IMG/VR virus record: IMGVR_UViG_3300010885_050982
Location: 1-64,000 of that record
Source: a virus
Length of the DNA stretch: 64,000 nt
Direction: 5' to 3' (one strand)
Shown piece after piece: positions 1,734 through 58,800 of the stretch. The stretch's first letter is position 1, and each line of letters begins with the position of its first letter. Under the pieces are notes generated by a model that saw only the letters and a program-made list of their open reading frames with translations, was not told the origin of the DNA and searched no databases. A program made the position numbers and the translations under genes.

Positions 1734-1743
1734 GGATGTGCAA

Positions 1744-3411
1744 ATGAAAAAATACCTTTCGATTTTTGTGGTGTTGCCGAGTATCGCGCTGGCGAGCACT
1801 CCCGATGAAGACGCGAACGCATCAATCGCGATTTGTCAGGCAATCATCACGATAGGGAAGCAACAGCCGGAACTTCCAGACAAGCCGCCGCAAGCGGTAG
1901 GTCCGGAAGTTGTTGCCCACGCAGAGACTCAGGGAATCGAGTCTGACACGCGCGCCACGACCGAAGAGGATTCGCCAAGCAGCGAAGCCTTGACGGCGGT
2001 CGACGAGACCGGGGCGCAGGATGATAACGCGAAGGCCGAATCGCCTATCGCTGAAAATATCGCATCGAGTCCTACGCCTACACCTCCAGCGAACGCTGCT
2101 TGGTCTGTAATGGTGTGTACTGCGGAAGGGTGCGACCTGAGAAATGCGGTCTACGATGGCCAGTCTCTGGTTGTGAATGACGCGGATTTTGACGTTGATC
2201 GAGCGAAGATCGCAAAAATTACGATCGTGCATGGATCAGAGAGGTTTCCAGGAAAGTACGTTTCGCACGACCCAAGCGGCGTCGTGTTTCGTGTGGCGGA
2301 AATCCAGGCCGCGACGTTTCAGACATTACCAGTTCCGCCAGTGGAATCAATGCGGCTTGTGATTGAAACTCCAATGTCGGCGACGGGTCCGCCAGCTGAG
2401 AAAATCAGATGGCGACGATACAGCAACGATGTTCTGAAAGAGTGCAAAACTACCGGAAAGCCGATCTTAGTTGTGGCCGGTGCCAAGTGGTGCCTTCCCT
2501 GTAAAGAAATGGAACGCACGACTTTTATGGACCAGTCAATTATCGATCTTATTGAATCGTCTTACCTGCCTGTTCGGATCGATCAAGAGGAAGATGCCGA
2601 AGTGTTCGGGTCGCTTAGTGTTCAAGCAATGCCAGCGATGATCCTGTTAACTCCAGACGACGCGGGAATCGTCCGGGTCAGCAAGACGCGACTCACTGGA
2701 AAGCAGTCTGTAAAGCAGCTTAAAGACTTTCTTGGTGACTCTCACCAAAATGCTTCTGAAACCGGATGTGCTGGTTCGATTTACGGTGCAGAGCATATTC
2801 ACGGCTTGTTCGATTGGTGGCGATCGCATGTCGGTGAGGGAGTGAAAGCTTCCATGCAATGGGACAGAACCGGCGGGCAATCGTTTCCTTTGTTGGCAAA
2901 CGGAGACTGGTCCGCGCTGGCGGTGTGTGGTCGGTACGGGCACGTTCAATTAACGGCAAAAGGCGCGGTCGACCTGCCGGTCGAGGCTCTTGGGTTTGGA
3001 TATCGCGTTGAGGGGGATGACATCACAATTGACGCCGACCCGATCACAATGAAGGGCGTCGGCTTGCTAATGAACCCGAATGTTAAAAAATCAGCGGTGG
3101 AACCCGCACGAGTCGGGACTGGGACAATCTTGACGATCATATCTGTGGTGCGAGGAGTTTGGTCTCTGCTACATCCGACGTGCGATTTGCAACTTGGAGG
3201 GAACGTTTCTGCGACCGGGGTACTCAATGGAAACAAGTTGTCGTTTGAGTTCCAGCAATGCCCGTCGATTAAGCTGGTAGCGTTGTTTACATTCCAAGTG
3301 GCGGTGAAACGAATTGATATCGATCTTGACCGTCAAAACGTGCATCTGGAGTTTTCAGGAAGCCGATGGTTAAAATCTCGTGATTTTGCCATCAAGTCAT
3401 TGATTCGTTAA
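1744..3411 (+). CDS. Secreted thioredoxin-fold protein
   Basis: Signal peptide MKKYLSIFVVLPSIALA; GKPILVVAGAKWCLPCKEM (WCxxC thioredoxin motif). Confidence 0.75.
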   Translation: MKKYLSIFVVLPSIALASTPDEDANASIAICQAIITIGKQQPELPDKPPQAVGPEVVAHAETQGIESDTRATTEEDSPSSEALTAVDETGAQDDNAKAESPIAENIASSPTPTPPANAAWSVMVCTAEGCDLRNAVYDGQSLVVNDADFDVDRAKIAKITIVHGSERFPGKYVSHDPSGVVFRVAEIQAATFQTLPVPPVESMRLVIETPMSATGPPAEKIRWRRYSNDVLKECKTTGKPILVVAGAKWCLPCKEMERTTFMDQSIIDLIESSYLPVRIDQEEDAEVFGSLSVQAMPAMILLTPDDAGIVRVSKTRLTGKQSVKQLKDFLGDSHQNASETGCAGSIYGAEHIHGLFDWWRSHVGEGVKASMQWDRTGGQSFPLLANGDWSALAVCGRYGHVQLTAKGAVDLPVEALGFGYRVEGDDITIDADPITMKGVGLLMNPNVKKSAVEPARVGTGTILTIISVVRGVWSLLHPTCDLQLGGNVSATGVLNGNKLSFEFQQCPSIKLVALFTFQVAVKRIDIDLDRQNVHLEFSGSRWLKSRDFAIKSLIR

Positions 3412-5289: not shown

Positions 5290-5925
5290 ATGACGGACGA
5301 AGTTTCTGACGACGTCGCGATGCTGCGACTGGCGTGCGGTGATGTGGATTCTATCACAATTCTATTTCTCCGCTACAACGAATCTCTCGTGCGAATTCTG
5401 AACTCAAAGCTGAGAGACTTTGCGGCTGCGGAAGACGCCGCGCAAACCGCGTGGTTGCGAGTGCAAGAGTTTGCCTCAGAGTATTCGCCAAACAATCGCT
5501 TTTTTTCTTGGATCAAGAAGATCGCGATCAACTCTATGATTGATGCCAAGCGTCGCGATCGGTCACGAAAATTGACGCTCTCCGAGCCATTGGATGGGGG
5601 TTCTTTGGTCGAGTTGATTGCCGATGATACAATTGATCCGATTGAAAATATGATCACACACGAGATCGCAGAGCGAATTGAATCGCTACTCCCGACGATA
5701 CCAGAAGATCAGCAGACGGTATTCACTCTGCATGTGTTCTCTGGTCTGACGATGGCCGAAATTGCTAGCCGCCTGGAGGAATCCAAGGCGACAATCAAAA
5801 GTCGATATCGACTCGCAAAACGCAAGTTGCTTGGCGAATACAGTCGTAAACGGGCGTCTGGAGATAACGGAAATGGCGAAAGTCAATCGGTCGTACGAGA
5901 AAACGATGCGAGATGCGTATCTTAA
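5290..5925 (+). CDS. ECF-family RNA polymerase sigma factor
   Basis: Region 2 (AEDAAQTAWLRV..F.SW..KIAIN..ID..RR) and region 4 HTH (IPEDQQTVF.L....GLT..EIA..L..S..TIKSR..LAKRKL); GAGG SD. Confidence 0.9.
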   Translation: MTDEVSDDVAMLRLACGDVDSITILFLRYNESLVRILNSKLRDFAAAEDAAQTAWLRVQEFASEYSPNNRFFSWIKKIAINSMIDAKRRDRSRKLTLSEPLDGGSLVELIADDTIDPIENMITHEIAERIESLLPTIPEDQQTVFTLHVFSGLTMAEIASRLEESKATIKSRYRLAKRKLLGEYSRKRASGDNGNGESQSVVRENDARCVS

Positions 5926-8174: not shown

Positions 8175-8974
8175 TGGCCTTTTCACTTATACAGCAGAAG
8201 CCGAAATTCGGGTCGAAGTTTAATCCTTCGCATCCGATGTCTATCGGCATGCTTGGTGGGTGGGTTTTTAATGAGGCCGGAGGGTTAACAGCCTACGACA
8301 TAACGGGAAAAGGCAATAACCTGGCCTTCAACGGCGGCGCAACGTGGACGAATGGTAAATATGGGCCAGCCGTGAAGTTTGACGGATCGACGGGCTATCT
8401 TTTGGGGTCTGATGCTGGGTTCCCATCGGGAGGTGCAAAGCGAACATTAGTATTTTTGCTGAGCTGCCAAGCCAATCTGGGTCGTGCGTTCGCGAGCTAT
8501 GGTCGACCAGGAAATGCAACGGGCGCGGCGACGTTTCAGCAGGTTATTCCGCTGACAAACGCAAATCAGACGATCGGACTGTCGAATTATGGTTTGGCAG
8601 CAAACGGCAGTCAAACCAGGGCATTGAACACGACGCGGCAGATGGCCGTCGTGGTCAACAGTGCTAGCAGCCAGTCGCTTTATACGGACGGCGTTGCTGA
8701 CGGAACCGGGGCGATGGCTTTTACTACTGTCCTCAATGGTCGTTTTGTCTTGGGGTGTCGATGGGACGGTGACAGCAGTCGGACGGAATTCAATCAGGTC
8801 ACGATTGAAATGTCGCTGATTTACGACCGTGCATTGACGGCGGGCGAAATTGCGAAGTTAAATCAACAGCCATTTTGTTACATGCAAAGCCCTCCGACGA
8901 AAACATTTTACGCGACGGGTGCGACGGCAAGTGTGTCGCTCCTGATGCGGCGCAGAAGGGCGGCGGCGCAATGA
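8174..8974 (+). CDS. LamG / concanavalin A-like domain protein
   Basis: W.FNE..G..AYD..G.GN, GKYG.A..FDG, LY.DG, IYDRALTA.EI motifs; TGATG coupling. Confidence 0.8.
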   Translation: MAFSLIQQKPKFGSKFNPSHPMSIGMLGGWVFNEAGGLTAYDITGKGNNLAFNGGATWTNGKYGPAVKFDGSTGYLLGSDAGFPSGGAKRTLVFLLSCQANLGRAFASYGRPGNATGAATFQQVIPLTNANQTIGLSNYGLAANGSQTRALNTTRQMAVVVNSASSQSLYTDGVADGTGAMAFTTVLNGRFVLGCRWDGDSSRTEFNQVTIEMSLIYDRALTAGEIAKLNQQPFCYMQSPPTKTFYATGATASVSLLMRRRRAAAQ

Positions 8975-11295
8975 TTATTGTTCCATCTGGTAGCAACCCC
9001 ACGATCGATATCCAAGTGCTTGACGACAACGGCCTGGCTGTTACCGGACTCGTTGCAGCGACGTTCCCAGCAATTTCCTATTCTATCGCCGGGCCGAATA
9101 CGACCGTGGCCGTGACGCTGACGGACTTGGGTTCATTGACAGCAGCCTATTCCAGCGGGGGCGTCAAAGAGAGATCTGGTGGTTACTATCGGTTCGACTT
9201 GCCAGCGGCGGCAGTGTCCACGGCTGGAACGAACGTGACGGTGTTTGGGGAGGCGACGGGCAAGCACGTTTTCAATTACATCGCGGTTTCGCCAGCGATC
9301 GGAGTGGCGGCGAGCGTTACCGGGTCTGTCGGATCAGTCGTCGGAAGCGTGGGGTCAGTTGCCGGAAGTGTAGGATCGATTTCTGGCGTGACGTTCCCTG
9401 CCAACTTTAGTCTGCTTTCAGTTGACGGCTCCGGTCGTGTGCTGCTTCAGCCTACTCAAGCGGGCGTGACGATTCCGACCGTAACGTCGGTCACAAATCA
9501 GTTAACTGCGGCTCAAGTGGCAACTGGTGTTTGGCAGGATGCCACGACTGGCGACTTTACCGTTGCAAGCTCAATCGGCAAGAGCTTGTACACTTCAGGA
9601 AACGCACCTGGCTCCACGAGTGGTCTTGCGTTGGTTGGGTCGAATGTTGGCACGGCAACAAGCGTTACCGGGTCCGTGGGCTCAGTTGTTGGGTCGGTGG
9701 GCTCAGTTGTCGGGTCCGTAGGCTCAATCAGCGGCGTCACATTCCCAGTCAACTTTAATTTGCTTTCAATCGATGGATCAGGCCGAGTTCTTCTTCAACC
9801 AACCCAGACGGGAGTCACGATTCCAAATGTGACGAACGTCACCACAGTAACAGGAAACGTCAATGGAAACGTCGCAGGATCAACAGGCAGTGTCACCGGA
9901 AATGTCAATGGGAACGTTGTTGGCTCTGCCGGGTCAGTTATCGGCTCAGTGGGATCAGTTGCAGGAAGTGTGGGGGCGGTCGCAGGCAATGTTACCGGAG
10001 ATGTCCAAGGCAAGGTCCTCGGAGGTGGATCAGGCACGATCACGGGGGATGGAGTCCGCGCATCAAGCGTATCTGGCGCGGTTGGGTCCGTTACAGGAGC
10101 GGTTGGGTCCGTTACAGGAGCAGTTGGTTCGGTTGCGGGAAACGTTTCGGGGGATGTCGGCGGAAAAGTATTGGGCAGCGGGTCAAGCATTATTGCAGGG
10201 GCTGGATGCCGAGCGGACAGCGTTACAGGCAGCGTTGGATCGGTTGTCGGAAGCGTTGGCAGCGTTGCCGGAGCCGTTGGCTCGATCAGCGGAGTAACCT
10301 TCCCAAGCAATTTTGGATCGTTCTCGATTGATTCGTTGGGTCGACTGTTGTTGCAACCAGCGCAACCATCTGTCGTCATTCCAACTGTGACCAACTTAAC
10401 GAACTCTGCGGTGAATGGTGATCTCACGGCGGCGATGAAGGCCAGCGTGACGACAGCCGCGACGGCAGCGACTCCTGTTGCGGCGTCGGTGACGGGAAGC
10501 GTCGGAAGTGTTGTTGGGTCTGTCGGGTCTGTCGTCGGCAGTGTCGGGTCAATTTCTGGAGTGACGTTCCCAAGCAATTTTGGATTGCTGGTTGTTTCGC
10601 CATCCGGAATCGTATCGGCGAACTCGACTCAACTTGGTGGAACGTCGGCGACCGGGATGTTGTCGGCGACGGGCGTCGGGTCCCCAGGATTCTTTGCCAA
10701 CATTCCAGCCGCGTCCGGCCCAACCCTGAACCAAATCGTTCAAGGGGTCTGGCAAGACACGACCGCAGGTGACTTCACCGTTCCGAACTCAGCCGGTGCT
10801 TACCTCAAATCGGCTGGTGGCGGAACAATTGTCGTCCAGAACAACATCTTGATAAACCAAGCGCAAGCGCAAGCTGCAATGATTCCATACCTGTTGCCAA
10901 TCGTGATCGGTGATACACTGGGATACGACTGGAATCTAGGGACGCTGACGGGGTGGAGCAAGATCGTGCTGACGGCAAAGAAAAATATCACGGACGCCGA
11001 CAGCGCGGCGGTGTTTCAGGTCGAGGCATTGTCGGCAGGTGGTGGTGGATTGCTTGTCTTGAACGGACAGTCTGCTTCCAACCCAACGCAAGGATCGATC
11101 ACGGTTGGGGACGCGACCGTTGGACTGATTACATTGGTGATCGCGGCGGCGGCGACGAATTTGTTGCCGCAAATGAATGGTCTTGGATCGTACTCTATCA
11201 GAGTCATTTACGGGACGTCTCCAGTCACGACGAGAACCCCAGTTATAAATCAATCGTTCTCCGTAACACGGACAGCGAACACAATCGTAGCGTAG
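8971..11295 (+). CDS. Gly/Ser/Val-repeat tail fibre or decoration protein
   Basis: ATGA overlap with LamG gene; many (V/S)GSV and GNV repeats; Ig-like N- and C-terminal segments. Confidence 0.7.
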   Translation: MIIVPSGSNPTIDIQVLDDNGLAVTGLVAATFPAISYSIAGPNTTVAVTLTDLGSLTAAYSSGGVKERSGGYYRFDLPAAAVSTAGTNVTVFGEATGKHVFNYIAVSPAIGVAASVTGSVGSVVGSVGSVAGSVGSISGVTFPANFSLLSVDGSGRVLLQPTQAGVTIPTVTSVTNQLTAAQVATGVWQDATTGDFTVASSIGKSLYTSGNAPGSTSGLALVGSNVGTATSVTGSVGSVVGSVGSVVGSVGSISGVTFPVNFNLLSIDGSGRVLLQPTQTGVTIPNVTNVTTVTGNVNGNVAGSTGSVTGNVNGNVVGSAGSVIGSVGSVAGSVGAVAGNVTGDVQGKVLGGGSGTITGDGVRASSVSGAVGSVTGAVGSVTGAVGSVAGNVSGDVGGKVLGSGSSIIAGAGCRADSVTGSVGSVVGSVGSVAGAVGSISGVTFPSNFGSFSIDSLGRLLLQPAQPSVVIPTVTNLTNSAVNGDLTAAMKASVTTAATAATPVAASVTGSVGSVVGSVGSVVGSVGSISGVTFPSNFGLLVVSPSGIVSANSTQLGGTSATGMLSATGVGSPGFFANIPAASGPTLNQIVQGVWQDTTAGDFTVPNSAGAYLKSAGGGTIVVQNNILINQAQAQAAMIPYLLPIVIGDTLGYDWNLGTLTGWSKIVLTAKKNITDADSAAVFQVEALSAGGGGLLVLNGQSASNPTQGSITVGDATVGLITLVIAAAATNLLPQMNGLGSYSIRVIYGTSPVTTRTPVINQSFSVTRTANTIVA
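9313..10590 (+). repeat. Four dispersed coding repeats SVTGSVGSVVGSVGSV..SVGSISGVTFP.NF
   Basis: Copies begin near 9313, 9661, 10219 and 10486; synonymous positions diverged. Confidence 0.8.
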
Positions 11296-17154: not shown

Positions 17155-17979
17155 ATGGATCGGAAGTTGACCGCGACCCTGCCGCTGAAGTGGCATGGTG
17201 GCAAGCAATACCTGGCCGACAGGATCATCGAATTGATGCCTCGGCACGTTCATTACGTCGAACCATATTTCGGCGGTGGCGCTGTGCTTTTCAATAAGCC
17301 GATGAATCTTGTCGAAGGACATTCGGAAGTCGTAAACGACGCCTATCCTGAGCTTGTGACGTTCTGGAAAGTTCTCCAGTCGCCTGTATGGTTCCCAGAG
17401 TTTCAACGACGGATGTCGATGACTCCGATGAGCAAGCAGGCTTTTGAAGATTCGCTGACGTCGGAAGCCCAAGATCCGTTGAACATCGCCTGCAATTTTT
17501 TCATCCGATACCGCCAGTCCCGACAGGGTCTCGGAAAAGATTTCGCGACGATGTCCAGGGCACGGACGCGGCGCGGAATGAACGAGCAGCTTTCGTCGTG
17601 GCTGTCTGCCGTAGATGGGTTACCGGAAGCCCACAAACGACTGATTCGAGTTGTCATCTTCAATGAAGATGCGGCAGGCGTGATTGAGCGGGAGGACGGG
17701 GCGGATACGTTCTTCTACGTCGATCCTCCTTATATGGCAGAAACGAGAGTCGCGAAGTCGGCGTACGAGCATGAGATGTCGCGCGAGCAGCATGCGAATC
17801 TGCTTGTCGCACTCGGTACGGCCACTGGAAAATTTATCCTGAGTGGATACAAGAGCGAACTGTATTTGGTTGCCGAGAAGCGTTATGGTTGGCAGCGAGT
17901 CGATATCGAGATCGACAACAAGGCAAGCTCGAAAAAAGTTAAGCCGATCAAGACCGAGTGTTTGTGGATGAATTATTGA
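17155..17979 (+). CDS. dam: DNA adenine methyltransferase (Dam/D12 class)
   Basis: PLKWHGGK, YVEPYFGGG, EVVND and FYVDPPY motifs. Confidence 0.92.
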   Translation: MDRKLTATLPLKWHGGKQYLADRIIELMPRHVHYVEPYFGGGAVLFNKPMNLVEGHSEVVNDAYPELVTFWKVLQSPVWFPEFQRRMSMTPMSKQAFEDSLTSEAQDPLNIACNFFIRYRQSRQGLGKDFATMSRARTRRGMNEQLSSWLSAVDGLPEAHKRLIRVVIFNEDAAGVIEREDGADTFFYVDPPYMAETRVAKSAYEHEMSREQHANLLVALGTATGKFILSGYKSELYLVAEKRYGWQRVDIEIDNKASSKKVKPIKTECLWMNY

Positions 17980-18575: not shown

Positions 18576-21074
18576 TTGCAATTGGCGACGTTGACGCTCA
18601 ACAAGTTGAAGGATGAACTGGCGTGTATCACGTTCCAGCCACGTCCAAATCAGCACGATCGAAACGATCAACAGCAAGCGTTTTACGATTCCGAGCATGA
18701 AGGCGTGACGTTCCTTTTGGGTGGGAATGGCGCGGGGACGACGACATGCGGGTTGGCCAAAGCCGTCAAGTTCATGACGATCGATCAGCCAGCGCCACGA
18801 AAAGACACTCCGTTCTGGATTATCGCCGGTTCTTATCCGCAAGTCATGAACGCATGCTGGAAAGAAAAGCTGCACCAAAAAGGGCATCTCGACCCCAATG
18901 CGGTCGATTGGAATCGCATCAATTGGTACAAACCGAATCAGGATTGGCCGTTCTCCGTCCCCCTGAAGCCGAGAAAGAATCATCCCGGTAAGAATTGGCT
19001 GATTTGCTTCAAGTCTTACGAGCAAGGCCGGGAAGCGATGCAGGCCGAAGCAATCGGCGGATTCTTGTTCGTTGAGCAGTTCCCTTGGGGGCTCCTGAAC
19101 GAAGTTATGCGAGGTTGCCGAGAATACTCGTTCCGGGGCAACAAGCTTGCCGAGTTCACTCCGGTCGACCCGTCGATGTCGATCGAACTCAGAGACATGG
19201 AGGAAACTGGAAAGCTACCGAAGTCGTGGGGATTGTACCGGGCGAATACTCGATGCGCTTTAGAAGCCGGTCAAATCTCGGAAAGTTGGTATCGCGACTT
19301 CTTTGCGATGATCCCAGACGCGATGAAGCCCGTTCGCGAACAAGGCTTGTGGGGCAACTTCGAAGGGGCTGTCTATCCTGAATTCTCTCCAGCGATTCAC
19401 TGTACGCCGGAAGGATGGGACATTCCGCCTGGTGCTCAGCATCGGCGAGCGGTGGACTTCGGATTCTCTCAAGAGCATGCTTTCGTTGCCTTATGGAGCT
19501 GTGCGGATGGTCGAGGTCGCGTCACGATATATGACGAATATTATTCGAAAGACACAACTCTCAGCGTCATTGACCATTGGAAAGCGATCGAAGACCGCAA
19601 TCCTTGGCCAAAAAACACTGCCGGTCGCTACGGAGTAACTTGGATGGATCATGACCTGGACGCGATCCGTACGCTCTCCAAGATCGAGCAATACACGAAC
19701 GGGGAGTACACCGCGCCGAACTGGTCACTTGCAATCAAAGCGGTCAACGAAGGGATTGAGTACGTCAAATACATGCTCAAGCCGTCCATTATCGTCGACC
19801 CGAACGAACCGCCATCGCCGAGGTTGCAGATCGTTCGGGACCGGTGCCCGAATCTGATGCGCGAAATGATCACGTATCGGCGACCGAAGCAACTTTCTGA
19901 ATCGATCAACGCAAACGCCGTGAGCCAGGACCCGGTGAAAATTGACGACGACTGTTGCTTCCCCGCTGGGTCAATGGTCGACACGCCAAATGGGCCGAGA
20001 CCTATCGAATCACTAAAAGCTGGCGACTTGGTTTATTCGCATCTTGGAATCGCGACGATCGACGTTTCTTCGATAAAAACAGGACAATCCGAAACCATCA
20101 CTATTACATTGGATGACCGACGTAGTATAGAATGTACCGCAAACCATCCAATCGCAACGGGATTTGACGGATGGTCTGAAGCGATCAATTGCGGCGGGAA
20201 GCTTTTGAATGTGAGGTTAGGATGCGAGTTGAAACAAACCGAAATGGACATACCGTTGAGATTGTCGAATACGGCGGCTTCGAGTGGAGGCGATACCCGA
20301 CACACAATGGTCATGCGACTCGGACATACTTCAGGCGACACACACGAAAAGGATCTGGACCGCTCATCCTGCACCTACTTCACCAGCAAGTCTACATCGA
20401 CAATTACGGAACAATTCCAGAAGGGCACGACGTACACCACAGGGACGAAAATCCAGGAAACAACGATCCGTCAAATCTTGTCGCGATCACAAAACAGGAA
20501 CACGGCAAGGCTCATTCAGGGAATCTCAAAAAGGCGATCATCTCCGCTGTCGACTGGCATAAAAGCGAAGAAGGTATGCAGTGGCACGCTGAGCACGGAA
20601 AAAAGTCTTGGGACAACCGAACATCTCACTCGATCGCTTGCGCTCAATGCGGCAAAGAGTTTGAAACAAGAGACGCAAAGAAAGAGACTCGATTCTGTTC
20701 AAGCAAGTGCCGACACTATGCCAGAGTCGCGTCTGGCGTTGACAATATCGATTTCACCTGCACGGTCTGCGGCGCGACGTTCAGAGCAAACCGCTACGCA
20801 AAGAAGAAGGTTTGCTCGAAAGAATGTCAATCTCGTTTCATCAGTGAGCATCGAAAAGAATACTGGAGAAAAAAACGTTTACAATCTGTCGACGAGTGAC
20901 GGAACGTATTTCGTCAATGGGGTTTTGGTTAGCAACTGTGACGCACTCAGGTACATCCTGTTTTCCGAAGCGTCGATGTCTGGGGTCACTCCTACCACAC
21001 TGGCAAAGCAACACTCAACTGGATCGACGCAACTTGATTCGCCGAAGTTCAGAAAGCGAGGGAGACGGAAATAG
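18576..21074 (+). CDS. terL: Terminase large subunit, intein-containing
   Basis: ATPase-like N-terminus (Q..F, LGGNGAG, FKSYEQGRE..Q, FTP); RNase H-like nuclease (AVDFGF, IYDEYY, CPNL..E...Y); K.DD.C|CDALRY split by the intein. Confidence 0.9.
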   Translation: MQLATLTLNKLKDELACITFQPRPNQHDRNDQQQAFYDSEHEGVTFLLGGNGAGTTTCGLAKAVKFMTIDQPAPRKDTPFWIIAGSYPQVMNACWKEKLHQKGHLDPNAVDWNRINWYKPNQDWPFSVPLKPRKNHPGKNWLICFKSYEQGREAMQAEAIGGFLFVEQFPWGLLNEVMRGCREYSFRGNKLAEFTPVDPSMSIELRDMEETGKLPKSWGLYRANTRCALEAGQISESWYRDFFAMIPDAMKPVREQGLWGNFEGAVYPEFSPAIHCTPEGWDIPPGAQHRRAVDFGFSQEHAFVALWSCADGRGRVTIYDEYYSKDTTLSVIDHWKAIEDRNPWPKNTAGRYGVTWMDHDLDAIRTLSKIEQYTNGEYTAPNWSLAIKAVNEGIEYVKYMLKPSIIVDPNEPPSPRLQIVRDRCPNLMREMITYRRPKQLSESINANAVSQDPVKIDDDCCFPAGSMVDTPNGPRPIESLKAGDLVYSHLGIATIDVSSIKTGQSETITITLDDRRSIECTANHPIATGFDGWSEAINCGGKLLNVRLGCELKQTEMDIPLRLSNTAASSGGDTRHTMVMRLGHTSGDTHEKDLDRSSCTYFTSKSTSTITEQFQKGTTYTTGTKIQETTIRQILSRSQNRNTARLIQGISKRRSSPLSTGIKAKKVCSGTLSTEKSLGTTEHLTRSLALNAAKSLKQETQRKRLDSVQASADTMPESRLALTISISPARSAARRSEQTATQRRRFARKNVNLVSSVSIEKNTGEKNVYNLSTSDGTYFVNGVLVSNCDALRYILFSEASMSGVTPTTLAKQHSTGSTQLDSPKFRKRGRRK
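19956..20936 (+). mobile_element. Intein (327 aa) in the terminase nuclease domain
   Basis: Block A CFPAGSMV..P.G.RPIE.L..GD.V; block B CTANHP; block F VYNL; ends VNGVLVSN with +1 Cys; removal restores DDDC-CDALRY. Confidence 0.92.
20222..20899 (+). CDS. HNH homing endonuclease with two Zn-ribbon repeats, in an alternate frame inside the intein
   Basis: GAGGT SD at 20213-20217; LH..VY....G.IP.G..VHH.D.N..NN...NL.....EH...H; CAQC..FCS..C and CTVC..CSKEC. Confidence 0.85.
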   Translation: MRVETNRNGHTVEIVEYGGFEWRRYPTHNGHATRTYFRRHTRKGSGPLILHLLHQQVYIDNYGTIPEGHDVHHRDENPGNNDPSNLVAITKQEHGKAHSGNLKKAIISAVDWHKSEEGMQWHAEHGKKSWDNRTSHSIACAQCGKEFETRDAKKETRFCSSKCRHYARVASGVDNIDFTCTVCGATFRANRYAKKKVCSKECQSRFISEHRKEYWRKKRLQSVDE

Positions 21075-34356: not shown

Positions 34357-36099
34357 GTGAAAACGAGCCGAAACGCGACCAATGTCGACGGTTCGGCTTT
34401 TCTCTTGATGGGTTCCCCGATGAACGGACAGGTCGATAACCTCAGCAACGCACTCCGCGCCGGGGTCGAGATCCTGTTGACGGACAGCAACGGCGGCAAG
34501 AACTGGGTCGCGCCCCATCAAGGCAAGTACCCTATCGGCCACACGGAAACGTTCTTAAATCGTTACACTTCAATGGCTAGGGTGTACCGAGATTATGACG
34601 AGTCGATTATCGATTCGCGAGACAACGCTCGCTTCATGTGGAATGACGTCGGAATTCGCGAGTGCATCGACAGCCGCATGCGATCGGTTTCTCTGCTCAA
34701 CTGGCATTTAGAGCCAGAAGACGAGTTAAGCCCAGACCAAGCAGCGTTTTGCACGTTTTTGGAAAAAGTGATCCGCAAGATTCGGTACTTCACAAAATAC
34801 CGACAGTCGATGCAATTGGCGATCTGGCTTGGCAAGCAAGGAATGAATCATCGCTGGCGATCCGATATGGTTGGTGGAACCGCAGTTTGGAAACCGACTG
34901 GGATTCATCAGGACGATTTCGGGTGGCGTCCGATTCACGGAGACAAACTTGTTTTTCGTATGGATCGACCAATTGGCGTTCCGGGTGCCTACGCCGGTCA
35001 ATTGGGTGTTCGCGTCGGAGCTTGGGGGCACAAAGCTGGAGATGTGATCAACGATCGCTGGAGGCTCGAATCGACAGATTACGGACTTGCCTACTTCCTG
35101 TCCCCGGCAGAGCGTCGGTTGCTGGCTGTGCATCGCCACAACATCGAAGATGCCGCGTACGAAGACGGGGTCCGGGCAGGCGTGATCAACGGAACCGGTA
35201 TTCGATCGGTCGTCTACTGGGAATGGGTTCAATCCAAGGAAGCAATGGCTTTCATGGTTGAGTTCGTCGAGCGTATGGCTGGCGGGGTACAGATCTGGAA
35301 GTATCCACAGGGTAATCAGCAAGCATTGGCGGAAGCGAAAGCAGCAGCCGAGAATTACAACTCAGGCCAAGAGCACATCATGCTTGTGCCGGTCCCAATC
35401 GGCGAAAACGGATCGCAATACGGGGTTGATGTCGTCGAGCCGGGATTTCAAGGGGTCGAGACTCTTCAACATCTGATCAAGGATTATTTCGGCGATCGGA
35501 TCAAACGGTACATTCTCGGGCAGAAACTGTCGTCCGAAGCCGAAGCGACCGGCATGGGGTCTGGGGTCGCTGAACTCCATCTGGACACGCTGTTGCAGAT
35601 CCTCCGAAGCGACGCGACCGCGCACGAAGAATGCCTGACGTCGGAACTGGTCGAGACTCTGATCAAAATCAACGTCCAGAAAAAAGCGTTCATGCATCCG
35701 GGTTTCATTCCGCGATTCGTCGTTGAAACTGAAGAACCGGACGTCGATAAGAAGCTCGAAGGGTGCGTCACGGCAGCGAAGGAACTCGGATTGAAATTCC
35801 GTAAGAAAGATATTTACGAGCTTGTCGGCATGGCGATGCCGGGTCCGGGTGACGACGTTACCGAACCCCTATCGGCAGGCGGAGCAGGTCCCGGCGGGGA
35901 AAATCCACCAGGCCAAGAAGAGCAGCAACCGGTCGATGTTGCCCCGCCATCGGAAAGCAAAGAGCCGAAAGACGGGACGGACTCGAAAGAGGATGACACC
36001 GCACGGGATGATAACGGCGGGCACGGTGTATCGAAATCGAGCCTCCAGCGGTACGCAAAAACCATACTTCATCGGTACGGCGGACTGAAACGGACGTGA
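34357..36099 (+). CDS. Portal protein (DUF935 / Mu gp29-like)
   Basis: I..R...V..L.W.LEP; KYP.G; I.RYILGQ.LSS......G.G.A.LH...DA......L...LV..L..IN; acidic C-terminal tail. Confidence 0.8.
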   Translation: MKTSRNATNVDGSAFLLMGSPMNGQVDNLSNALRAGVEILLTDSNGGKNWVAPHQGKYPIGHTETFLNRYTSMARVYRDYDESIIDSRDNARFMWNDVGIRECIDSRMRSVSLLNWHLEPEDELSPDQAAFCTFLEKVIRKIRYFTKYRQSMQLAIWLGKQGMNHRWRSDMVGGTAVWKPTGIHQDDFGWRPIHGDKLVFRMDRPIGVPGAYAGQLGVRVGAWGHKAGDVINDRWRLESTDYGLAYFLSPAERRLLAVHRHNIEDAAYEDGVRAGVINGTGIRSVVYWEWVQSKEAMAFMVEFVERMAGGVQIWKYPQGNQQALAEAKAAAENYNSGQEHIMLVPVPIGENGSQYGVDVVEPGFQGVETLQHLIKDYFGDRIKRYILGQKLSSEAEATGMGSGVAELHLDTLLQILRSDATAHEECLTSELVETLIKINVQKKAFMHPGFIPRFVVETEEPDVDKKLEGCVTAAKELGLKFRKKDIYELVGMAMPGPGDDVTEPLSAGGAGPGGENPPGQEEQQPVDVAPPSESKEPKDGTDSKEDDTARDDNGGHGVSKSSLQRYAKTILHRYGGLKRT

Positions 36100-36124: not shown

Positions 36125-36165
36125 ACGATCGCGCAGATGGCAACTTATTTGTGGATCAAGAATCA

Positions 36166-39100
36166 ATGAAAACCATTCAAGAGCGAATCCAAGACTCCAT
36201 CGAACGATATTCGGCTACCGAAGGGCGATGGATAACGATCAACGGCACTCACGTCCAGTTGGACAAGAGCGGGATTGTCGTGTCTGGCCCTGATCGGCTT
36301 CGGGGTCGCATGAAAGCGCCGGAAGCCCCGTCGTGGTTTCGAGGAAAGAGAAAGTCTCCTCCTCAAGACACCCCGGAGATTGAATTCAAATCAGCGGAAA
36401 AACCAAAGCTGAAAGCCAATCTTGGTGCGGACATCTACAAAATGATGCTCGCGCATCAGGCCGCAGAAAAGCAGAAAAAGGACGACGCGGAAGCGAGCAG
36501 GGAATTTGACCGAAAGGACGCCATTGCGCGAAAGTTGCCACCAGCCGCGAAAGACGTGAAACATTCCGGCCTGAATGCGATCAAAAAACAGATCAAGGGA
36601 GGTAAGCGGGCGGATGGTCAGTTCTTCTCACCTGAAGAAATGGACGAACTGTATCGCACCTTCTTGTTCACAATGCGAAAAGCAATGGGCATGACGGAAC
36701 CGACCGCACGAGACCAGCAAGCATTCCGGGACAATCCAGATCACGTCCTAAGCAAGTTTTCAAAGCGATTTACCGAAGCGTATGCAAAGTCGAAAGCCAA
36801 ACTTGCAGCGGGACAGAAAAGCCTGTTTGATGACGACTTCGAGGATTTCCCGGTCCCCGCGATTCCTGTCGCCGAGATTCCGGCCCCAAAAGAAGAGAAA
36901 AAGACGGTCGTGACGGAAAAGTTCGTCGCGAAACCGAAAGTCACCACATTCAAGGAAGCGAGATCCGAGAAGCCATCCAAGCCTGTAGCCAAGCACGGCA
37001 CTCCAAAAGGGAGGCACTGGATTACGCTCCATCACGGCGCTCTTGGCGGCAAAGGGTCGCGGGTGCAGATCGATGACGACGGAACGATCGTTCTGGGTCA
37101 CCCGTCGCTTGTGGGTAAAAATCTCAGCGATATGAAGAAAGTCACAGAATCGGTCAAGCCTGATCAAGAGGAATCGACAGGCGAAGACCGGTCTGCGGAT
37201 CTTCGGTTGGCCGACAAGCTTGCCGACAGGCTTGCGTCGGGAGAGGATCTGTCCGCGAAAGAGTTGTTCGCAATCGCCAATGAAAATCACGGCGGAACAC
37301 GAGCCGAAAACAAATACGGACAGTCCCAAGCGTACGACTCGCTGGAATATGCGATCAACAAAAACCTGGAAGGGGAAACCGATCCACGGGCGAAGCTGTA
37401 TTCAGCGGTCGAGCAGGCTCGTCAAATGGCGAAAACTGTCGATCAGCTGCCCACTCAAACGAACCGAGACGGCAACAAAGTTTTGATGCAGCAGTTTTCG
37501 ACCCCGCCGCACTTCGCCTATGCGGTAAATTGGTTGGCAAACATCGAGCCGGGCGACAAGGTGCTCGAACCATCCGCTGGAACTGGATCTCTCGTCGTTC
37601 ACGCAAAAAATGCGGGCGGGGACGTCTACGCAAATGAACTCGACCCGGATCGCGCTCAGTATCTGGAGGACATGCTCGGAAAAGGGAAAGTCTCCGTTGA
37701 GAATGCGGAGCAGATTGCCGGTATCCTTCCGGGTCGGGGCGTCCCCAAATTTGACACGATCGTCATGAATCCGCCATTCTCGTCCACGGCAGGTCGAACA
37801 GACAGCAAAGACATCCTTACTGGCGCAAAGCACATTGAGGAAGCGGCGATGTTGCTGAAGGATGGGGGGCGGCTTGTCTCCATTGTTGGCGGCGGAATGG
37901 GTCCGGACCGATCGCGGTATCGAGACTTTTTTAAGAAAATGCAAGAAAATGGTTTGATCCTTCGTGCAAACGTTCTCGTTAGCGGGGAAGATATCTACTC
38001 CAAATATGGAACGAAGTTTGATTCGAGAGTTTTGGTCTTCGACAAGACATCAAAAGAAGATCGACTTTCTGAAAAACCGGTTTTCGGCGAAGTTGATGAC
38101 ATTTCAGATTTGATGGAACTTTTAGAAGGGGTCCGAAATGACCGAACTCGAATTGATGAACCATCCAGCGAACAAGCTGGCGACGAAACTGATCAAGCAA
38201 ACGGGGGAAAATCCGAACCCGGAGATTCTGCCGATTCTTCGGCTGGCGCAAGTGTTTCTGGAGACGAAAGTGACGCCATCCCTGGAGATGACGGAACTGG
38301 CGAATTCGGCGTATCAGATGGAGGCACAACCGAAAGAGACAGTGGCGTGCCTGCTGACGTCGGACCCGGAGCAACTGGATCTGGATCGAGCGGAGAATCC
38401 GAAGCTCTCCAGTCAGCTATTAAGCGACGCACTGGACGTTCTCGAAAGGGAAATGCGGGAGGAAAAGGAGCATCCGGGAAGGATACCGGCGGAAAACCTC
38501 CAGAACAGTCTGATGCTGATAAACAGCGGCTTCGACCTCCAGAGCCTGTAGCATTCGAGTCCGATTCGTCTGGTCCCGTCGACAAGACTGGCGAGGGGGA
38601 TGTTGCGACTCAGTCTGATCTCGGCGAGTCGCTGTATGATCTCTATAAACCGCAAGCACTGGTAAAGGGCGCCCACCCGCACGCCACGGCGCTCGTCGAA
38701 TCGGCGGCGATGGCAGCAGTCAAGCCTCCGGTCGCGACGTATCGCCCTGTTTTGTCTCCGGACATCGTCGAAAAAGGAATGCTGTCGGCTGCGGCACTCG
38801 AAACAGTCGTGTATGCGGGGCAATCGCACTCACAGATGCTGGAAGCCGACCCTGGCAAGCCCGAAATGCGTAGGGGGTACTTTATCGGCGATGGCACGGG
38901 TGCCGGGAAGGGAAGGGAGTTGTCCGGGGTCATTACCGACAACTTCAATCAAGGCCGGAAGAAAGCCGTCTGGTTGACGAAATCGCAAGGACTGATCAAC
39001 GATGCTGTCCGGGATTGGGTGGACGTCGGGAATGATAAATCGGACATTTTCCATTTCGACAAGATCCGGAAAGGGAACAACGTACCTGATGACGGGATTG

Positions 39101-42100
39101 CGTTCATTACTTACTCTACATTGCGATCGAAACCGAAGGATGCGAGCAAGAAATCAAACATCGACCAGCTTGTTGACTGGCTTGGGCCTGATTTTGATGG
39201 CGTGATCGCTTTCGATGAAGCCCACCTGATGGCAAACGCCATGAACACTGAGGGTGAGCGGGGAATCAAAAAAGCGAGCCAGCAGGCATTGGCCGGGATT
39301 GAATTGCAGCAGCGACTTCCAAGCGCGAGAGTCGTGTATTCGTCGGCAACCGGAGCAACCGAGCTTGGTAACTTGGCCTATGCCGAACGTCTCGGTATCT
39401 GGGGTCGCGGAACGCCATTCGCGGACAAGAATTCGTTCATCAACGACATGTCCGAGGGCGGGGTCGCTGCGATGGAACAAATCGCTCAGTCACTCAAGGC
39501 AACCGGAAGCTACTGCTCACGCGCAATCGCGATGGATGACGGTACGCCTAACGGCAAGGTGACATACGATCGATTGACGCATCACCTGAGCGACGATCAG
39601 CACGAACAGTACAACGCATTGGCGGATGGCTGGCAGAGTGTTTTGGAAAATATCGACAAAGCATTGGAAATGACGGGCGGCAGCGATAGCCCACAAGCAA
39701 AATCAGCCGCCAGTTCGGCTTTCTGGGGGGCGCAACAGAGATTCTTCAATCAAGTCATGACGTCGATGCAGACACCGGCGGTCATTGAGGCGATGTCGGC
39801 TGACATTAAAGAAGGTCGGTCACCGGTCATCCAACTCGTCAACACGATGGAAGCCTCTACGAAACGAGCGTTGGCCGAACGCGGCGAGGACGACGAAGAT
39901 GCCGATATCGACGTCTCGCCTCGCAAGATCCTTCAGCAGTACCTTGCCACGTGCTTCCCAACGGAGCGGTACGAAAGCTACACCGACGAGGACGGGAACG
40001 AGCGGTCGCGCATGGTCACGCAAGTGAAGCGTGACGAGCACGGAAAGCCCACGACCAATGACAAGGGTGAAGTCTTGATGGAACCGGTCCACGACCCACG
40101 GGCGGTCGCGTTGCGTGACAAAATGCTTCAGGACGTTGCCGCTTACCGAATTCCAGATCCACCAATCGATCAGATCATCAACCATTTCGGTCACGAAAAA
40201 GTTGCTGAAATAACCGGACGGTCGATTCGCAAGATTAAGATGGAGGAAGATGACGAGCCGAAGTTCTATCCGCGAAACTCAGCGGTCGCGAATCAGGCGG
40301 AGTCCAAAGCGTTTCAAGATAACCAGAAAAACATCCTGATTTTTTCGGGGGCTGGGGACACAGGCTTTTCGTACCACGCTGCGCGAAACATCAAAAACCA
40401 AGGTCGTCGTGTCCATTACATGCTTCAGCCAGGCTGGCGTGCGGACGCTGCCGTGCAAGGATTCGGTCGAACGAACCGAACCAACCAATCGTCGGCACCG
40501 CATTATCGGCTTGTTGAAATCGACGAGTTGAAGGGTCAAAAGCGTTTCATCTCGACAATCGCTCGACGACTGGATCAACTGGGCGCGATCACCAAGGGTC
40601 AACGTCAGACCGGCGGTGGCGGACTTTTCGCCGCCAGCGACAACTTGGAAAGCACCGAAGCGAAAGCCGCGCTGGAACAATTCTTCCACAACCTCAAGGC
40701 CGGTGCGATTGAAGGGTTGGATCACACTGACGTCATGCGTCAGTTGGGCCTTGCAAAAAAAGAAGAGTCCAACCGAAAACAGGGCAAGGATACTCCTCCT
40801 CCAGAAATGGGGCAGTTCTTGAATCGCATGCTGTCCATGCGCGTCGGGATGCAGGGGAAAGTGTTCGAAGCGTACGAAAAGCAGCTTCAGCAAGTTGTCG
40901 CCAAGGCAATCGAAGACGGCACGCTCGACTCAGGGGTCGAGAATTACCCAGCAAGCCAGATCAACCGAAAACAAGACTCGGTCGTTTTCAGGGAGCCGAA
41001 GAGCGGCGCGGAAGCTCGGCACATCATCGCGAAGTGCAAAACCAAGTCCGACAAAATGCCGTTCAAGGAAATCGAATCCAAATCAAAACAGCCGGAGAAG
41101 TTTGTCCGAAACAAGCAATCTGGTCACGTCTACGCTGCTTACAAGGGCGTCAACGAAACCGACCCAAAAACCGGCGAAGTCAAAGAGACGTACGTTTTGG
41201 TTGGTGCATCTGGAAATCGTCGATCGGGAGTAGAGAAAGCTGACTTAGAAGGCGATTGGACAGCACGTCGATACAAGGACTGGAAACAGCCGAAGTTCGA
41301 CAAGCTCGACAAAGACGAAGCGGAGCGACTTTGGAAAGATCAGTACGACAAGATTCCAGACTTCAGCGAATCGGATCAGCATTTTCTGACAGGTGCGCTG
41401 CTGCCGATCTGGGACCGAATCCCAGGGAATAAGCCGAAGATCTATCGCATGCGTCTCGAAGACGGTCAAACGATCGTCGGTCGGCACATTCCAGCAAAGC
41501 ACGTCCCAGAAATGCTCCAGCGACTTGGGGCACATGTGGAAGCCGAATCTCACACGGCAGCGGGAACACATTCCGCACTCACTGGAGGCCGACATCGAGC
41601 CGTGCTGGCAAACGGATGGAAACTCAAGCCGGTCATGGTGCAGGGTGAGCGGCGAATTGAGTTGGTTGGACCATCCTCAATGTCCGAGGTGCGCCAGATC
41701 GAAGCAGACGGAGTCAAGAAGGAACTCAAGGGTGGGTACGATCCGCACTATTACGTCCCGGTCGGTGAGGATGGCGTGAAAGTTCTGGAGAGACTGACGA
41801 AATCACGTCCGATTACGGAAGTGGCTGAAATCGAGAAGAGCAAGTATTCGCGACCGGCAACCACAGAAGGACGAATCCAGGCGGCACGGGCAACTGTGAT
41901 GCACGCCGTCGAGTTTGTCGCGATGCCTCGACGAGAGTTTTTCCAACAAGCGGCGGTGCCGAAATCCCGGTTCGAGATGGCGAAAGAGCGTTACGCCCGC
42001 CACAAGCCCGCGTCAGGGCAAATGTCGATGGAAAGCCACTGGATCACTCTCCACGGGGGCAGCGAAGGCGGCGGAACTCACGTTGAGGTCGACGGGAAAG

Positions 42101-55862: not shown

Positions 55863-58800
55863 ATGGAAACGACCGAACGAATCGCCAGAGCGATGGAACG
55901 ATACTCGAAGGAATTCGAGTCGAAGCATCCCCGCGATCAGGATGGGATGTTTGCTGAAAAAATAGAGTCGACAGCAGCGATGGCAGACGGGGCATTCAAT
56001 CCATCCTGGAGCGTCCGTAAGCATGGTCGCATGGACTGCTTGATGCCAGTCAACCACGACAGCAAGCCGTTTGTTGCAGAGCTGCAAAGAATCAGCAGTT
56101 CGCTATATGATCTCGATAAAGACGATCCTGAGCAAAAGTTCGCAATCGACATCGAGAATCGCATAGGACAGGCTGTCCACGAATTCACATTCAGGAACGT
56201 TCACACGGAATACGGAAACGAAAAGTCGGCATTTGGCGTCACTGGGACTGGATCTGCCACGGAGGTCGTCAAGAATGCTGCGGCATGCTTAATCAAGGCG
56301 ATCAAGTTGTATTCGCACGCTCTTCCTGTAATCTACTTCACTGCCGCAGAGAGAAGCCGAATTGGCTTGTATTCGCTGCTTTCTAAACGGGCTGAAAAAG
56401 TGACTGGATATATTGGATACCGCGTTGATCTTGGAAATTCCGATCATGCGCTGTTTGCTCTTGTCGACCCAAGCAAGGCGACGGAGTTCGAGTCTGTAAT
56501 CAGACGCCAAAATGCTAAAGTTGAGCGATACCAGAAATGGGACGAGTCGAAGCACGTTCGCGACGAAGTCGGAAAGTTCGCAAATAAATCGTCATCAGGT
56601 TCGATCAGCGAATCCGACAAAGTTGCGATGCCGTTCGATCCATTCCCGAAAACATTCAAGGAAATGAAGAACCGGGATTATGTCGACGTATGGCATGGAA
56701 CAACATTACAGCGGCTTGAGAAGATTATCGAAAGCGGTAAGACGAAAACTGGCGAGCGAGGTCAGTTTTTGGTGTCCCCAAGATTCCGCCATGCAAGCCA
56801 ATATCCAGAGTTCCCTGGAGAAGACGAAGATCCAATCGTCGTCTCGATTCGAGTTCCAGTGAGCAATCTCCTTCCAGACGAAAATGATCAACCGGGAATT
56901 AGCCTTGAGCAATCGCTTTTTGGCAATCACTTCGGGCTTGCTGCTGATGTCGATGGAGGAATAGACATCTCTCAGATTCGCGGAGTCTACGGTGAGTCTG
57001 TCGATGATGCATGGACAGTTGCTGAAACTGGCAGGCATGTTGCCGAATCAATTCTCAAAAACAAGTCGAATCGGCTCGATCCTGTCGAGTCTGCTCGCAT
57101 TGATTACGCCGAAAACGGCACGAAATCAAAAGCGTTTAAGGCATGGTTCGGCGACTCGAAGGTTGTCGATTCCGATGGCGAGCCACAAGAAACGCACGGG
57201 ACCGCGAAACCGGTCTACCACGGGACCCCGCATGACTTCGAAGCTTTCGACAGCAGTACGCAAGACTGGTCGTGCGAGGTCGGGAAAGGGTTCTACTTCA
57301 CGGACAACGAAGAACTGGCGAGATCAGAATATTCGAAGGGCGGAAAAGTCATCGCCGCGTACCTGAAGATTGACAAGCCTTTGGATTTGGACAAACCAAT
57401 CTCCGACTCTGATCGTGACGCGATCATGGAAGCGGGCAAGAAAAAATTCAATCATGTCGACTGGAACGCTCCCAGCGGACTGACCGGGGACGGCATTCAC
57501 AGGTGGATCGACAATCAGCTCGGAACAGCATTCGTCAACGACGTCATTGAGGCTGCTGGTTTCGATGGGATCACTCACATTGCGAGAAATAAACTGGGGG
57601 GTCGCGATAAAAAGAAGATGGATGACTTCGGTCGCGTCTGGATTGCGTTTGCCCCCTCGCAAGTGAAAAGTACTGACAATCGAGGGACGTTTGACCCGAA
57701 AGACAATCGCATGGCATATTCCAAGAGAATTGCGAATGCTATCGAGATGTATTCGTTCGACCCAAGTCAACCACGGGACAAGTCTGGCCAATGGACAGCC
57801 TACGACATCGGCCACAAATCGGGGATGAACGGGTTTGTCAGCAAAAGAGAAAGGCAAAAAGCCCTTCGCGAAAACGGGCACGATATTGCTGATTCAAAAG
57901 TGATGCAAGAGTTCAATCGTGGGCACAGCGATGCTATAAGCCAAAAGCAGAACGAAAGGGAGCAGGCGAAGAATCTGCGACTCGCCCCATTCATAGAGGC
58001 TGCGAGGAAAAACTGGAAGCCTGGAGATTTCGACATTGACGATAGCGATACGCAAGCATGGGAGGCGAAATTAAAATCGATCGCTGAGGAAGATGCAGAC
58101 AATGCAGACAATGAAATGGATGCTGAGAACGAAAAACAGCAACAAATCAATCGAGACATGAAAAAACACCTTGTTTCCGAAGAAGTTACATCAAGAGCCA
58201 GAAAGATTGTTGGCGATTGGGCGAAAGATCATGGATGGGAAGTATCGAACGAACATTCGTCTCGAACGAATTCGCATTACTGCACCCTTGCGAAAAGAAA
58301 CGGAGACGAGGAGGAATCGTTTACTGTTCGCGTTTCGGATCATCACGCACCGCATGGAAGCGGCTTCAATGAGGCTAAGCAGGAGTACCATGAGCCATCT
58401 GATGTGAATATTGTTCCTGAACTACCACCTTATGATGACGAATCAGACTGGAAAGAGTTTGACGTTAAGTCTGGCCCGGATTGGTCAAGATTCACCGTTG
58501 ACACCACTGAACTTGATAAGATGGCGAGAGGCGATGCCACAGACAGGCAGTCCTATTCCAAGAGAATCCAATCCGTCCTTGAACGGTACTCGAAAAAACC
58601 AGGCGAGAAGAAAGAGCACAAATTCAGTTCGACTCAAATCGACGTTCCACCAGAGATCGCAGAGAAAATCAGGAAACTTGCCGAGCGAATCCCGGACAAT
58701 CAGCTTGCCGACGATGGTCGCGAAACAGACTTCCACATTACGGCGCTTTTCGGCCTGCACACGAACGATCCTGACGACGTGAAGGAAGTTCTGTACGGCC

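Follow-up and report, generated by a model that had tools for sequence, protein, structure and literature searches.

The gene for the large terminase subunit (terL) analyzed here lies in a 64,000-nucleotide stretch, herein referred to as the window, which corresponds to positions 1 to 64,000 of IMGVR_UViG_3300010885_050982, a metagenome-derived 103-kb virus record of IMG/VR. The gene is a single open reading frame (ORF) at positions 18576-21074 of the forward strand, encodes 832 amino acids (aa) with no stop codon throughout, and matches the PHROG family phrog_2 'terminase large subunit' (E 2.9e-11). An intein of 327 aa (19956-20936) interrupts the protein in frame with terL, and a second ORF, encoding an HNH endonuclease, is found in the -1 frame inside the intein (Table 1). 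Together, the intein and the HNH gene most probably form a composite homing element. The coordinates of both, the intact splicing blocks of the intein, the GAGGT sequence preceding the HNH start, and the two zinc ribbons of the HNH protein had been given in an initial annotation made from the sequence alone, and all of them were found to be right.

Table 1. Features of the terL locus in the window.
Feature	Position	Strand	Evidence or remark
terL N-extein, ATPase and most of the RNase H-like nuclease domain, ends ...VKIDDDC	18576..19955	+	phrog_2
Intein N-terminal splicing lobe, residues 1-89, block A Cys1 and block B T61-x-x-H64	19956..20222	+	Hint_2; pLDDT 79-93
Shine-Dalgarno-like GAGGT, 4 nt 5' of the HNH ATG	20213..20217	+	
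HNH_3 homing-endonuclease gene, 225 aa and TGA, -1 frame, wholly within the intein	20222..20899	+	Pfam HNH_3, phrog_15471
Intein-frame 'shadow' linker, residues 90-287	20223..20816	+	stop-free, 45% S/T/R/K, pLDDT <50
Intein C-terminal splicing lobe, residues 288-327, blocks F/G	20817..20936	+	pLDDT ~90, strands 291-326
terL C-extein, Cys+1 then DALRY, 45 aa and stop	20937..21074	+	intein-free relatives continuous here

In Pfam, the window TerL protein itself has only a terminase match below the cut-off, and its relatives match Terminase_6N, Terminase_6C, and Terminase_3C, covering the ATPase and RNase H-like nuclease domains. Most of the 120 TerL relatives analyzed are intein-free proteins of about 500 aa, a length matched by the 505 aa predicted for the spliced window TerL. 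The intein-free relatives have the uninterrupted motif ...PLKKDDHA-V/C-DALRY, which in the carriers is split as DDHA^C...N^CDALRY (junctions marked by ^); the intein of the window is located at this nuclease motif, DDH-A^(V/C)-DALRY. The matches of the relatives to the RNase H-like domains of Terminase_6C and Terminase_3C extend up to the motif. A profile of the intein-free relatives (A3) matches the large terminase of PDB entry 5oe8 (E 2.6e-7) and aligns the insertion motif with NDHQLDADRY, residues 404-413 of that structure; the profile was required, as phmmer with one intein-free relative found no match in PDB. We take the His-x-x-Asp of the motif to be a part of the terminase nuclease metal site. 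In some intein-free alleles (for example P0016, P0032, P0065, P0076, and P0100), the usual Val at +1 is replaced by Cys, giving DDHA-C-DALRY. This Cys could be either a footprint of intein loss or a pre-adapted target.

The intein begins with Cys1 (TGC, 19956) and ends with Asn327 (AAC, 20934-20936), followed by the extein residue Cys+1 (TGT, 20937), so that the C-terminal junction reads ...VLVSN^CDALRY. All blocks of a class-1 HINT intein were found: block A (CFPAGSMVDT), block B (CTANH, containing TxxH), block F/G (VYNLSTSDGTYFVNGVLVSN), and the C-terminal end ...NGVLVSN. In the alignment of related inteins (A2), Cys1 of block A and H64 of block B (T61-A-N-H64) are invariant, and T61 is conserved in at least 90% of the sequences. 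The match to Pfam Hint_2 (E 3e-6) is just under the Pfam cut-off. In the AlphaFold2 model, built with an alignment of 12 inteins, residues 1-89 and 288-327 are ordered, with a pLDDT (predicted local distance difference test) value of about 90, and residues 90-287 are predicted to be disordered. The model with this loop trimmed superposes on the mini-inteins gp41-1 (6riz; Z 20.7 over 122 residues, root-mean-square deviation (rmsd) 1.3 Å) and NpuDnaB (4o1r; Z 19.9), the rmsd ranging from 1.3 to 1.4 Å for both. In total, 30 intein or Hedgehog chains match the model at Z >=8, with gp41-1, NpuDnaB, and other mini-inteins at Z 20.7-15. The two lobes are thus predicted to form a complete HINT fold. 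Because the insertion lies in an essential nuclease motif of terL, the whole 327-aa insert is expected to be excised by protein splicing.

The middle part of the intein had initially been described as a stop-free string rich in Ser, Thr, Arg, and Lys and lacking any endonuclease motif. This description was confirmed: the linker comprises 198 codons, 45% of them for these four residues, and no Pfam family matches it. It begins one base past the A of the HNH start codon. The claim that the element is otherwise a mini-intein, carrying in the -1 frame an HNH gene with its own start, was also borne out, as the ordered lobes match mini-inteins and the disordered linker coincides with the HNH ORF. 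Two PHROG profiles, phrog_30251 and phrog_35162, match the shadow peptide at TerL residues 642-792. These families thus consist in part of an HNH gene read off frame, and phrog_35162 ('unknown function') may be largely an artefact of this kind. No match was found for the intein-frame peptide by tblastn against phages, probably as a result of low-complexity filtering.

The -1 frame is open at 20180-20899, and the HNH ORF runs in it from the ATG at 20222 to the TGA at 20899. Pfam HNH_3 (E 8e-14; 51.4 bits, the cut-off being 24.8) and phrog_15471 'HNH endonuclease' (E 1.6e-33) both match the encoded protein. The protein consists of an N-terminal beta domain, an HNH core (H72, H73, N81, N85, and H94), and two Cys4 zinc-ribbon modules of the CxxC...CxxxC type. 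The core residues represent the catalytic His, the structural Asn, and the metal-binding Asn/His of the HNH motif. Among the 27 sequences of alignment A1, no variation was seen at these five positions or at the four Cys of the first zinc ribbon. The AlphaFold2 model of the protein has a pLDDT of 92.6 and shows the beta-beta-alpha-metal fold of His-Me finger nucleases. In PDB, 1u3e (I-HmuI) matches it best, over 80 aa with a VIA Z of 6.8 and an rmsd of 3.7 Å (Foldseek probability 0.99), followed by other HNH domains; the C-terminal modules match small zinc fingers. The closest homologue is P0121 (66% identity). The HNH protein would nick or cleave intein-free terL in a site-specific manner.

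The HNH ORF extends 83 nt into the C-terminal splicing lobe, covering its initial strands, where positions 20817-20899 encode the last 27 HNH residues and the stop codon. The initial annotation had proposed dual coding over about 680 bp. The overlap of the two frames does have this extent, but only in these approximately 80 nt are two folded segments encoded by the same DNA; elsewhere, the intein frame is merely read through.

The same layout was found in other phages. A tblastn search of 50,697 phage records with the HNH protein revealed homologues under the annotated terL of four cultured phages: Tetrasphaera phage TJE1, Acinetobacter phage Highwayman, Clostridium phage phiCDHM19, and Rhodobacteraceae phage LS06-2018-MD07. 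Each of these phages has the HNH ORF at -1 to terL and within an intein at the equivalent terL motif. These inteins were found without the VLVSN pattern; three of the four also end with SN, and that of Highwayman ends with HN. Additionally, IMG/VR was searched with a degenerate DNA pattern for VLVSN^CDALRY, which matched 28 contigs. Homologous HNH genes, always in the -1 frame, were found at 12 of these loci (11 distinct, L023 and L036 being near-identical), and a 145-aa mini-intein was found at the same terL site in 16 contigs. Such mini-inteins of the same family include the L016 group and L095. Among 185,579 genomes, the same pattern identified the full layout in a Gemmatimonadales metagenome-assembled genome (MAG) and a mini-intein in an Acidobacteria MAG. 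Thus, besides the window, the layout is present in at least 16 sequences: four cultured phages, 11 distinct IMG/VR contigs, and one Gemmatimonadales MAG. The -1 frames were counted without P0121, P0002, P0008, P0017, P0038, P0041, P0046, P0047, P0057, P0073, and P0096. Carriers of this HNH_3-in-intein family are phages of Actinomycetota, Pseudomonadota, and Bacillota, as well as the Gemmatimonadales MAG.

The boundaries of the element are also shared. The HNH stop codon is located 37-61 nt before the splice junction in 15 of the 16 measured elements and overlaps the junction in the remaining one (L019). No in-frame version of the HNH was seen among the tblastn matches. In Acinetobacter phage BP10 and Lactobacillus phage CL2, free-standing HNH homologues adjoin terminase genes; with PAE1 included, such homologues are located directly beside terS, terL, or portal genes.

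A split form of the element was found in Vibrio phage 1.238.A, whose terL harbors a homologous HNH gene, likewise in the -1 frame, at the same site. Its intein frame contains 14 stops, and the C-terminal lobe together with the C-extein has its own Shine-Dalgarno (SD) sequence and ATG, which makes it a split intein of the 'fractured gene' type. The terL of this phage (L005, NC_055735.1, 152-3880) contains two inteins, an in-frame LAGLIDADG-type one in the ATPase domain and the split one at the nuclease motif; the C-terminal part is annotated merely as 'hedgehog/hint domain protein'. In Clostridium phage phiCD119 (L007, NC_007917.1, 778-2595), the terL annotation is fragmented, and the HNH frame appears in it as a hypothetical protein. 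The intein frame stops there past ...SYINGL, at a point where that of phiCDHM19 continues, which means that the copy is broken or split, unless an old sequencing error produced the stop. Two further variants were observed at the protein level. P0002 and P0041 have, besides the nuclease-site intein, an extra mini-intein-like insert just past Walker A (GGNGAG^C...HHN^TS), and the P0073 intein, at the same site, ends with ...NGVLSAQ^C, Gln replacing the C-terminal Asn.

The existence of mini-inteins, free-standing HNH genes, and split forms makes plausible the earlier proposal that a free-standing HNH gene invaded a mini-intein, although the change may also have run in the opposite direction, by loss.

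The stop codons in the overlap were analyzed by permutation of synonymous codons within each HNH ORF, for the window and 13 homologous elements. The intein frame contains no stops in any of the 14 elements, versus 0.6-5 expected, and the third frame contains 1-33, as expected. The intein frame is thus kept open over the HNH gene, as had been supposed for the window. The share of permutations leaving the intein frame open was 4% for the window and 0.02-48% for the 13 homologous elements; since stop-forming combinations have already been removed from the codon pool being permuted, the test errs on the conservative side. The split form in Vibrio phage 1.238.A, with its stops in the intein frame, serves as a natural control. 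For the window, about 2 stops are expected in the frame +1 to the HNH ORF versus about 13 in the other frame. The -1 offset of the HNH gene is explained by this difference, since the frame +1 to the HNH ORF is nearly stop-free by codon structure.

The two frames also differ in their conservation. Mean pairwise amino-acid identity over the 91 pairs of elements reaches 34.6% for the HNH frame, compared with 19.6% for the intein frame and 17.7% for the untranslated third frame, and identity is higher in the HNH frame in every one of the 91 pairs. Nucleotide identity at the first, second, and third HNH codon positions is 0.48, 0.53, and 0.33, respectively, the third positions being the least conserved. 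Selection therefore acts on the encoded protein in the HNH frame and, in the intein frame, only on the absence of stops.

These data bear on the possibility that the element is a decaying relic, with an HNH ORF that is no longer expressed or active and open only from recent history, and an intein that persists only since its precise loss is rare. Such stages are predicted by the homing cycle, same-family mini-inteins do occupy the same site, and four elements have no SD sequence before the HNH start. Nevertheless, the HNH ORF is intact in all 16 measured elements at pairwise identities of only 30-47%, the catalytic His and Asn residues and the Cys ligands are invariant, and the low conservation of third codon positions requires long-term purifying selection on the protein, all of which makes a relic improbable.

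The mobility of the element was analyzed on a tree of the 120 TerL relatives built from extein columns only. The 11 intein carriers in this tree need 10 state changes, at least 9 of which are forced by well-supported branches, and their distribution is indistinguishable from that of shuffled labels. Several carriers have very close intein-free sisters (for example P0002/P0016, P0038/P0074, and P0046/P0064). This patchy distribution is the pattern expected for a homing element with frequent gain and loss.

The tree also speaks to the role of the HNH protein. HNH proteins reportedly partner terminases and assist cos cleavage in HK97-like phages, and the positions of the free-standing homologues in BP10, CL2, and PAE1 would suit a packaging accessory nuclease that has become lodged in an intein. 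The very close relatives of the carriers that have neither intein nor HNH (P0016 beside P0002 and P0074 beside P0038) show, however, that the HNH is dispensable for packaging by such a terminase. Since the protein is, moreover, an HNH_3 enzyme with zinc ribbons, nearest to the homing enzyme I-HmuI, and always travels with an intein or split intein, a packaging function is quite unlikely.

The HNH gene has features of an independently initiated cistron. Its start (ATG or GTG) is at a conserved place, preceding the first conserved strand by 3-15 codons in 12 of the 14 elements and lying directly past the last strand of the N-terminal splicing lobe; this position is shared by P0121, L035, L027, and L037. 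A good SD sequence precedes the start in six of the 14 elements (AGGAG, AAAGGAG, GGAGG, GGAG, AGGTG, and GAGGT in the window), the homologues comparable with the window being L037, L003, L006, L027, and L002. GAGGT also precedes the ATG of the window genes at 5290 and 47420 and is thus the phage's own SD type. The RNA around the HNH start is less folded than shuffled controls (z +1.18). As for a separate promoter before the HNH gene, neither a sigma-70-like site nor a copy of the window TGATCC motif was found within the intein. Internal initiation on the terL mRNA is the best reading of how the HNH protein would be produced.

Production by programmed -1 frameshifting, which would fuse the HNH protein to the N-terminal lobe or to the whole intein, is suggested by the -1 position of the gene and by the window HNH frame, which is open for 14 codons upstream of the ATG. 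A slippery heptamer X_XXY_YYZ is, however, absent from the relevant stretch in 13 of the 14 elements, with nothing conserved there, and in six elements the HNH frame extends no more than 1-4 codons upstream of the start before it meets a stop. Therefore, a frameshift fusion is unlikely, and with the conserved ATG or GTG and the six SD sequences favoring initiation, only a very small probability can be given to recoding.

No greater probability can be given to an insert that does not splice and is tolerated as a surface loop. Such an insertion has been proposed for ShiLan (Arsenault et al., 2025, PMC11855218), and the window intein does lack both the penultimate His and the block-F His. Against this, none of Cys1, TxxH, the terminal Asn, and Cys+1 is missing, a complete HINT fold is predicted for the lobes, and the insert separates the H and D of the nuclease motif, where 327 aa would hardly be tolerable.

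Finally, the refuting case named in the initial annotation, a canonical in-frame HNH intein concealed by two compensating frameshift errors, could be entertained for a metagenome-derived record but is effectively refuted by the identical -1 offset and boundaries in 16 independently assembled sequences, four of them isolate genomes, by the stops just before the HNH start in six elements, by the conserved position of the start codon, and by the lack of an in-frame version among the matches.

With the anatomy, conservation, frame statistics, predicted folds, and patchy distribution as observed, a composite of an intein and a -1 HNH homing gene is the best explanation of the locus, and we hold it with considerable confidence. 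The element would be a mobile one of phage large-terminase genes, with a class-1 HINT intein between DDH-A and (V/C)-DALRY and, where canonical inteins hold an in-frame endonuclease domain, an HNH_3 gene as a separate -1 cistron. Ribosomes translating terL would read through the HNH DNA in the intein frame and produce the disordered loop of 198 residues. Lobes 1-89 and 288-327 would fold as a mini-intein and excise the 327 aa, yielding the 505-aa TerL with the motif DDDC-CDALRY restored. A minority of ribosomes would start at GAGGT/ATG 20222 and produce the free 225-aa HNH enzyme. In a mixed infection, this enzyme would nick or cut intein-free terL near the nuclease motif, and repair from the intein-bearing allele would copy the intein and the HNH gene together. 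The intein frame would be held open solely by selection against stops, with sequence-level selection acting in the HNH frame.

Several points weigh against this explanation. Splicing, internal initiation and translation of the HNH, the cleavage target, and homing itself are steps that we infer from sequences and predicted structures. A penultimate His and the block-F Asp and His are common, although not obligatory, in inteins. In the window subgroup, the penultimate His is absent and replaced by Ser, as had been noticed initially, and block F of the window (VYNLSTSDG-TYF) has no His, Asn replacing its Asp. In the absence of these three usual helpers of Asn cyclisation, the splicing chemistry may be atypical or slow. 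The HNH core resembles the I-HmuI fold only modestly (Z 6.8). A core SD sequence occurs by chance at about 10% of all ATGs, that of the window has a short spacer of 4 nt, and four homologues have none at the HNH start. The nearest DNA relative, L035, has 47% HNH identity, and the maximum in the metagenome scan is 34%; codon-position conservation and two-frame identity were used because these relatives are too distant for a formal dN/dS. In a Mantel test, HNH identities correlate with those of the splicing lobes (r 0.49), and both correlate with those of the extein (r 0.56). The HNH identities thus track the extein as well as the splicing lobes, and horizontal and vertical descent look alike in this respect.

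Out-of-frame endonucleases in inteins were described for actinophages, partly in terL, in a 2025 preprint that called them previously unreported (Gosselin et al., 2025). This agrees with the initial expectation that the arrangement would be rare rather than unique. The enzyme in that study is endonuclease VII-like; its gene shares the strand of the splicing domain, to which it is in 'frame 3' (= -1), and its proposed origin is a free-standing endonuclease invading an intein. The supplementary alignment of the preprint shows CVDHDH..TG..RGLLC..CN (Endonuclease_7) in an intein of about 265 aa ending with NGLVSHN. The window shares with these elements an endonuclease ORF within the intein, on the same strand and in another frame, an open intein frame whose middle has no recognisable structure, and terL as one of the host genes. 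In contrast to the Endonuclease_7 enzymes, that of the window belongs to HNH_3, has 225 aa and two zinc ribbons, and lacks CVDHDH...RGLLC..CN, and its intein ends with VSN. Unlike the actinophage elements, the window family is found in several phyla, often with a clear SD sequence, and has a split-intein sibling. No actinophage besides TJE1 was found among the tblastn matches listed for the window HNH and the TJE1 copy. The kind of architecture has thus already been described, and the window represents an unreported variant with respect to nuclease family, ribosome-binding site, phyla, and coexisting forms. In the literature searched, an intein in the terL of TJE1, phiCDHM19, or Highwayman is not mentioned. 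By its title, a 2026 preprint (10.64898/2026.09.14.751524) has an out-of-frame endonuclease of a dnaX intein as its subject.

Related arrangements were found in other systems. In the 'fractured genes' (Dassa et al., 2009, PMC2677866), a free-standing endonuclease gene is reportedly located between the halves of a split intein. An endonuclease cistron between the N- and C-terminal lobes is likewise present in the window, and the exact fractured form is that of Vibrio phage 1.238.A. Unlike the fractured form, the window has an open intein frame and a single polypeptide, for which cis-splicing is expected. In phage DNA methylases, a ShiLan-type insertion contains a hidden out-of-frame HNH (Arsenault et al., 2025). 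Like the window element, it has an HNH ORF in another frame of a host gene that is still open, is patchily distributed, and is presumed to home. Unlike it, the window HNH is flanked by HINT lobes and has an SD sequence before its ATG, whereas the ShiLan type has neither splicing domains nor a detectable ribosome-binding site. The nuclease shares its fold and family (Pfam HNH_3) with I-HmuI, its best structural match; I-HmuI, however, is intron-encoded and has a helix-turn-helix tail, which two C-terminal Cys4 modules replace in the window enzyme. In canonical HNH inteins, the endonuclease occupies the same insertion point between the splicing lobes but is an in-frame domain of the intein polypeptide, whereas the window HNH is out of frame. 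The mini-inteins gp41-1 and NpuDnaB share the two superposable ordered lobes but not the loop of 198 residues that is translated through in the window.

Several other features were observed in the window. A second intein, covering residues ~362-800 of a 925-aa ORF at 44338-47115, is a canonical LAGLIDADG intein with Hom_end_hint, LAGLIDADG_3, and Hom_end in frame, which agrees with its initial description. For ORF 8875-11295, considered as the holder of the second intein, a Pfam search found nothing. Two giant 'polyvalent' proteins are encoded at 36151-44277 (2708 aa, with AAA_34 and Helicase_C_4, a Strawberry-notch-like helicase) and at 55863-60326 (1487 aa, with ART-PolyVal and a 2',5'-RNA-ligase domain), and a Mu-type portal gene (34357-36099) is located upstream of both. 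Just upstream of the terminase region is a gene for a D12-class Dam-like N6-adenine methyltransferase (17155-17979), and positions 1738-3411 encode a 557-aa protein containing a thioredoxin-like domain.

The locus indicates that one stretch of DNA can hold both an intein and its homing endonuclease as two genes, and the layout supports the view that inteins acquire endonucleases through invasion by free-standing genes. The arrangement is limited neither to actinophages nor to one nuclease family. For annotation, this means that gene callers report the long terL ORF alone, so that the HNH gene is missed and the shadow peptide enters protein families. Ribosomes translating terL and crossing the HNH start may throttle synthesis of the nuclease and tie it to late-gene expression. 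Rather tentatively, the overlap could be regulatory, and the family could be an old cross-phylum lineage in which mini-intein, free-standing HNH, read-through, and split stages coexist at one terL site. If true, these stages would provide a natural series for the 'splicing first, endonuclease later' order and for the origin of split inteins. The family also supplies compact mini-intein lobes from terL that apparently accommodate a loop of some 200 residues, as well as HNH enzymes that are probably site-specific and aimed at a conserved terminase motif.

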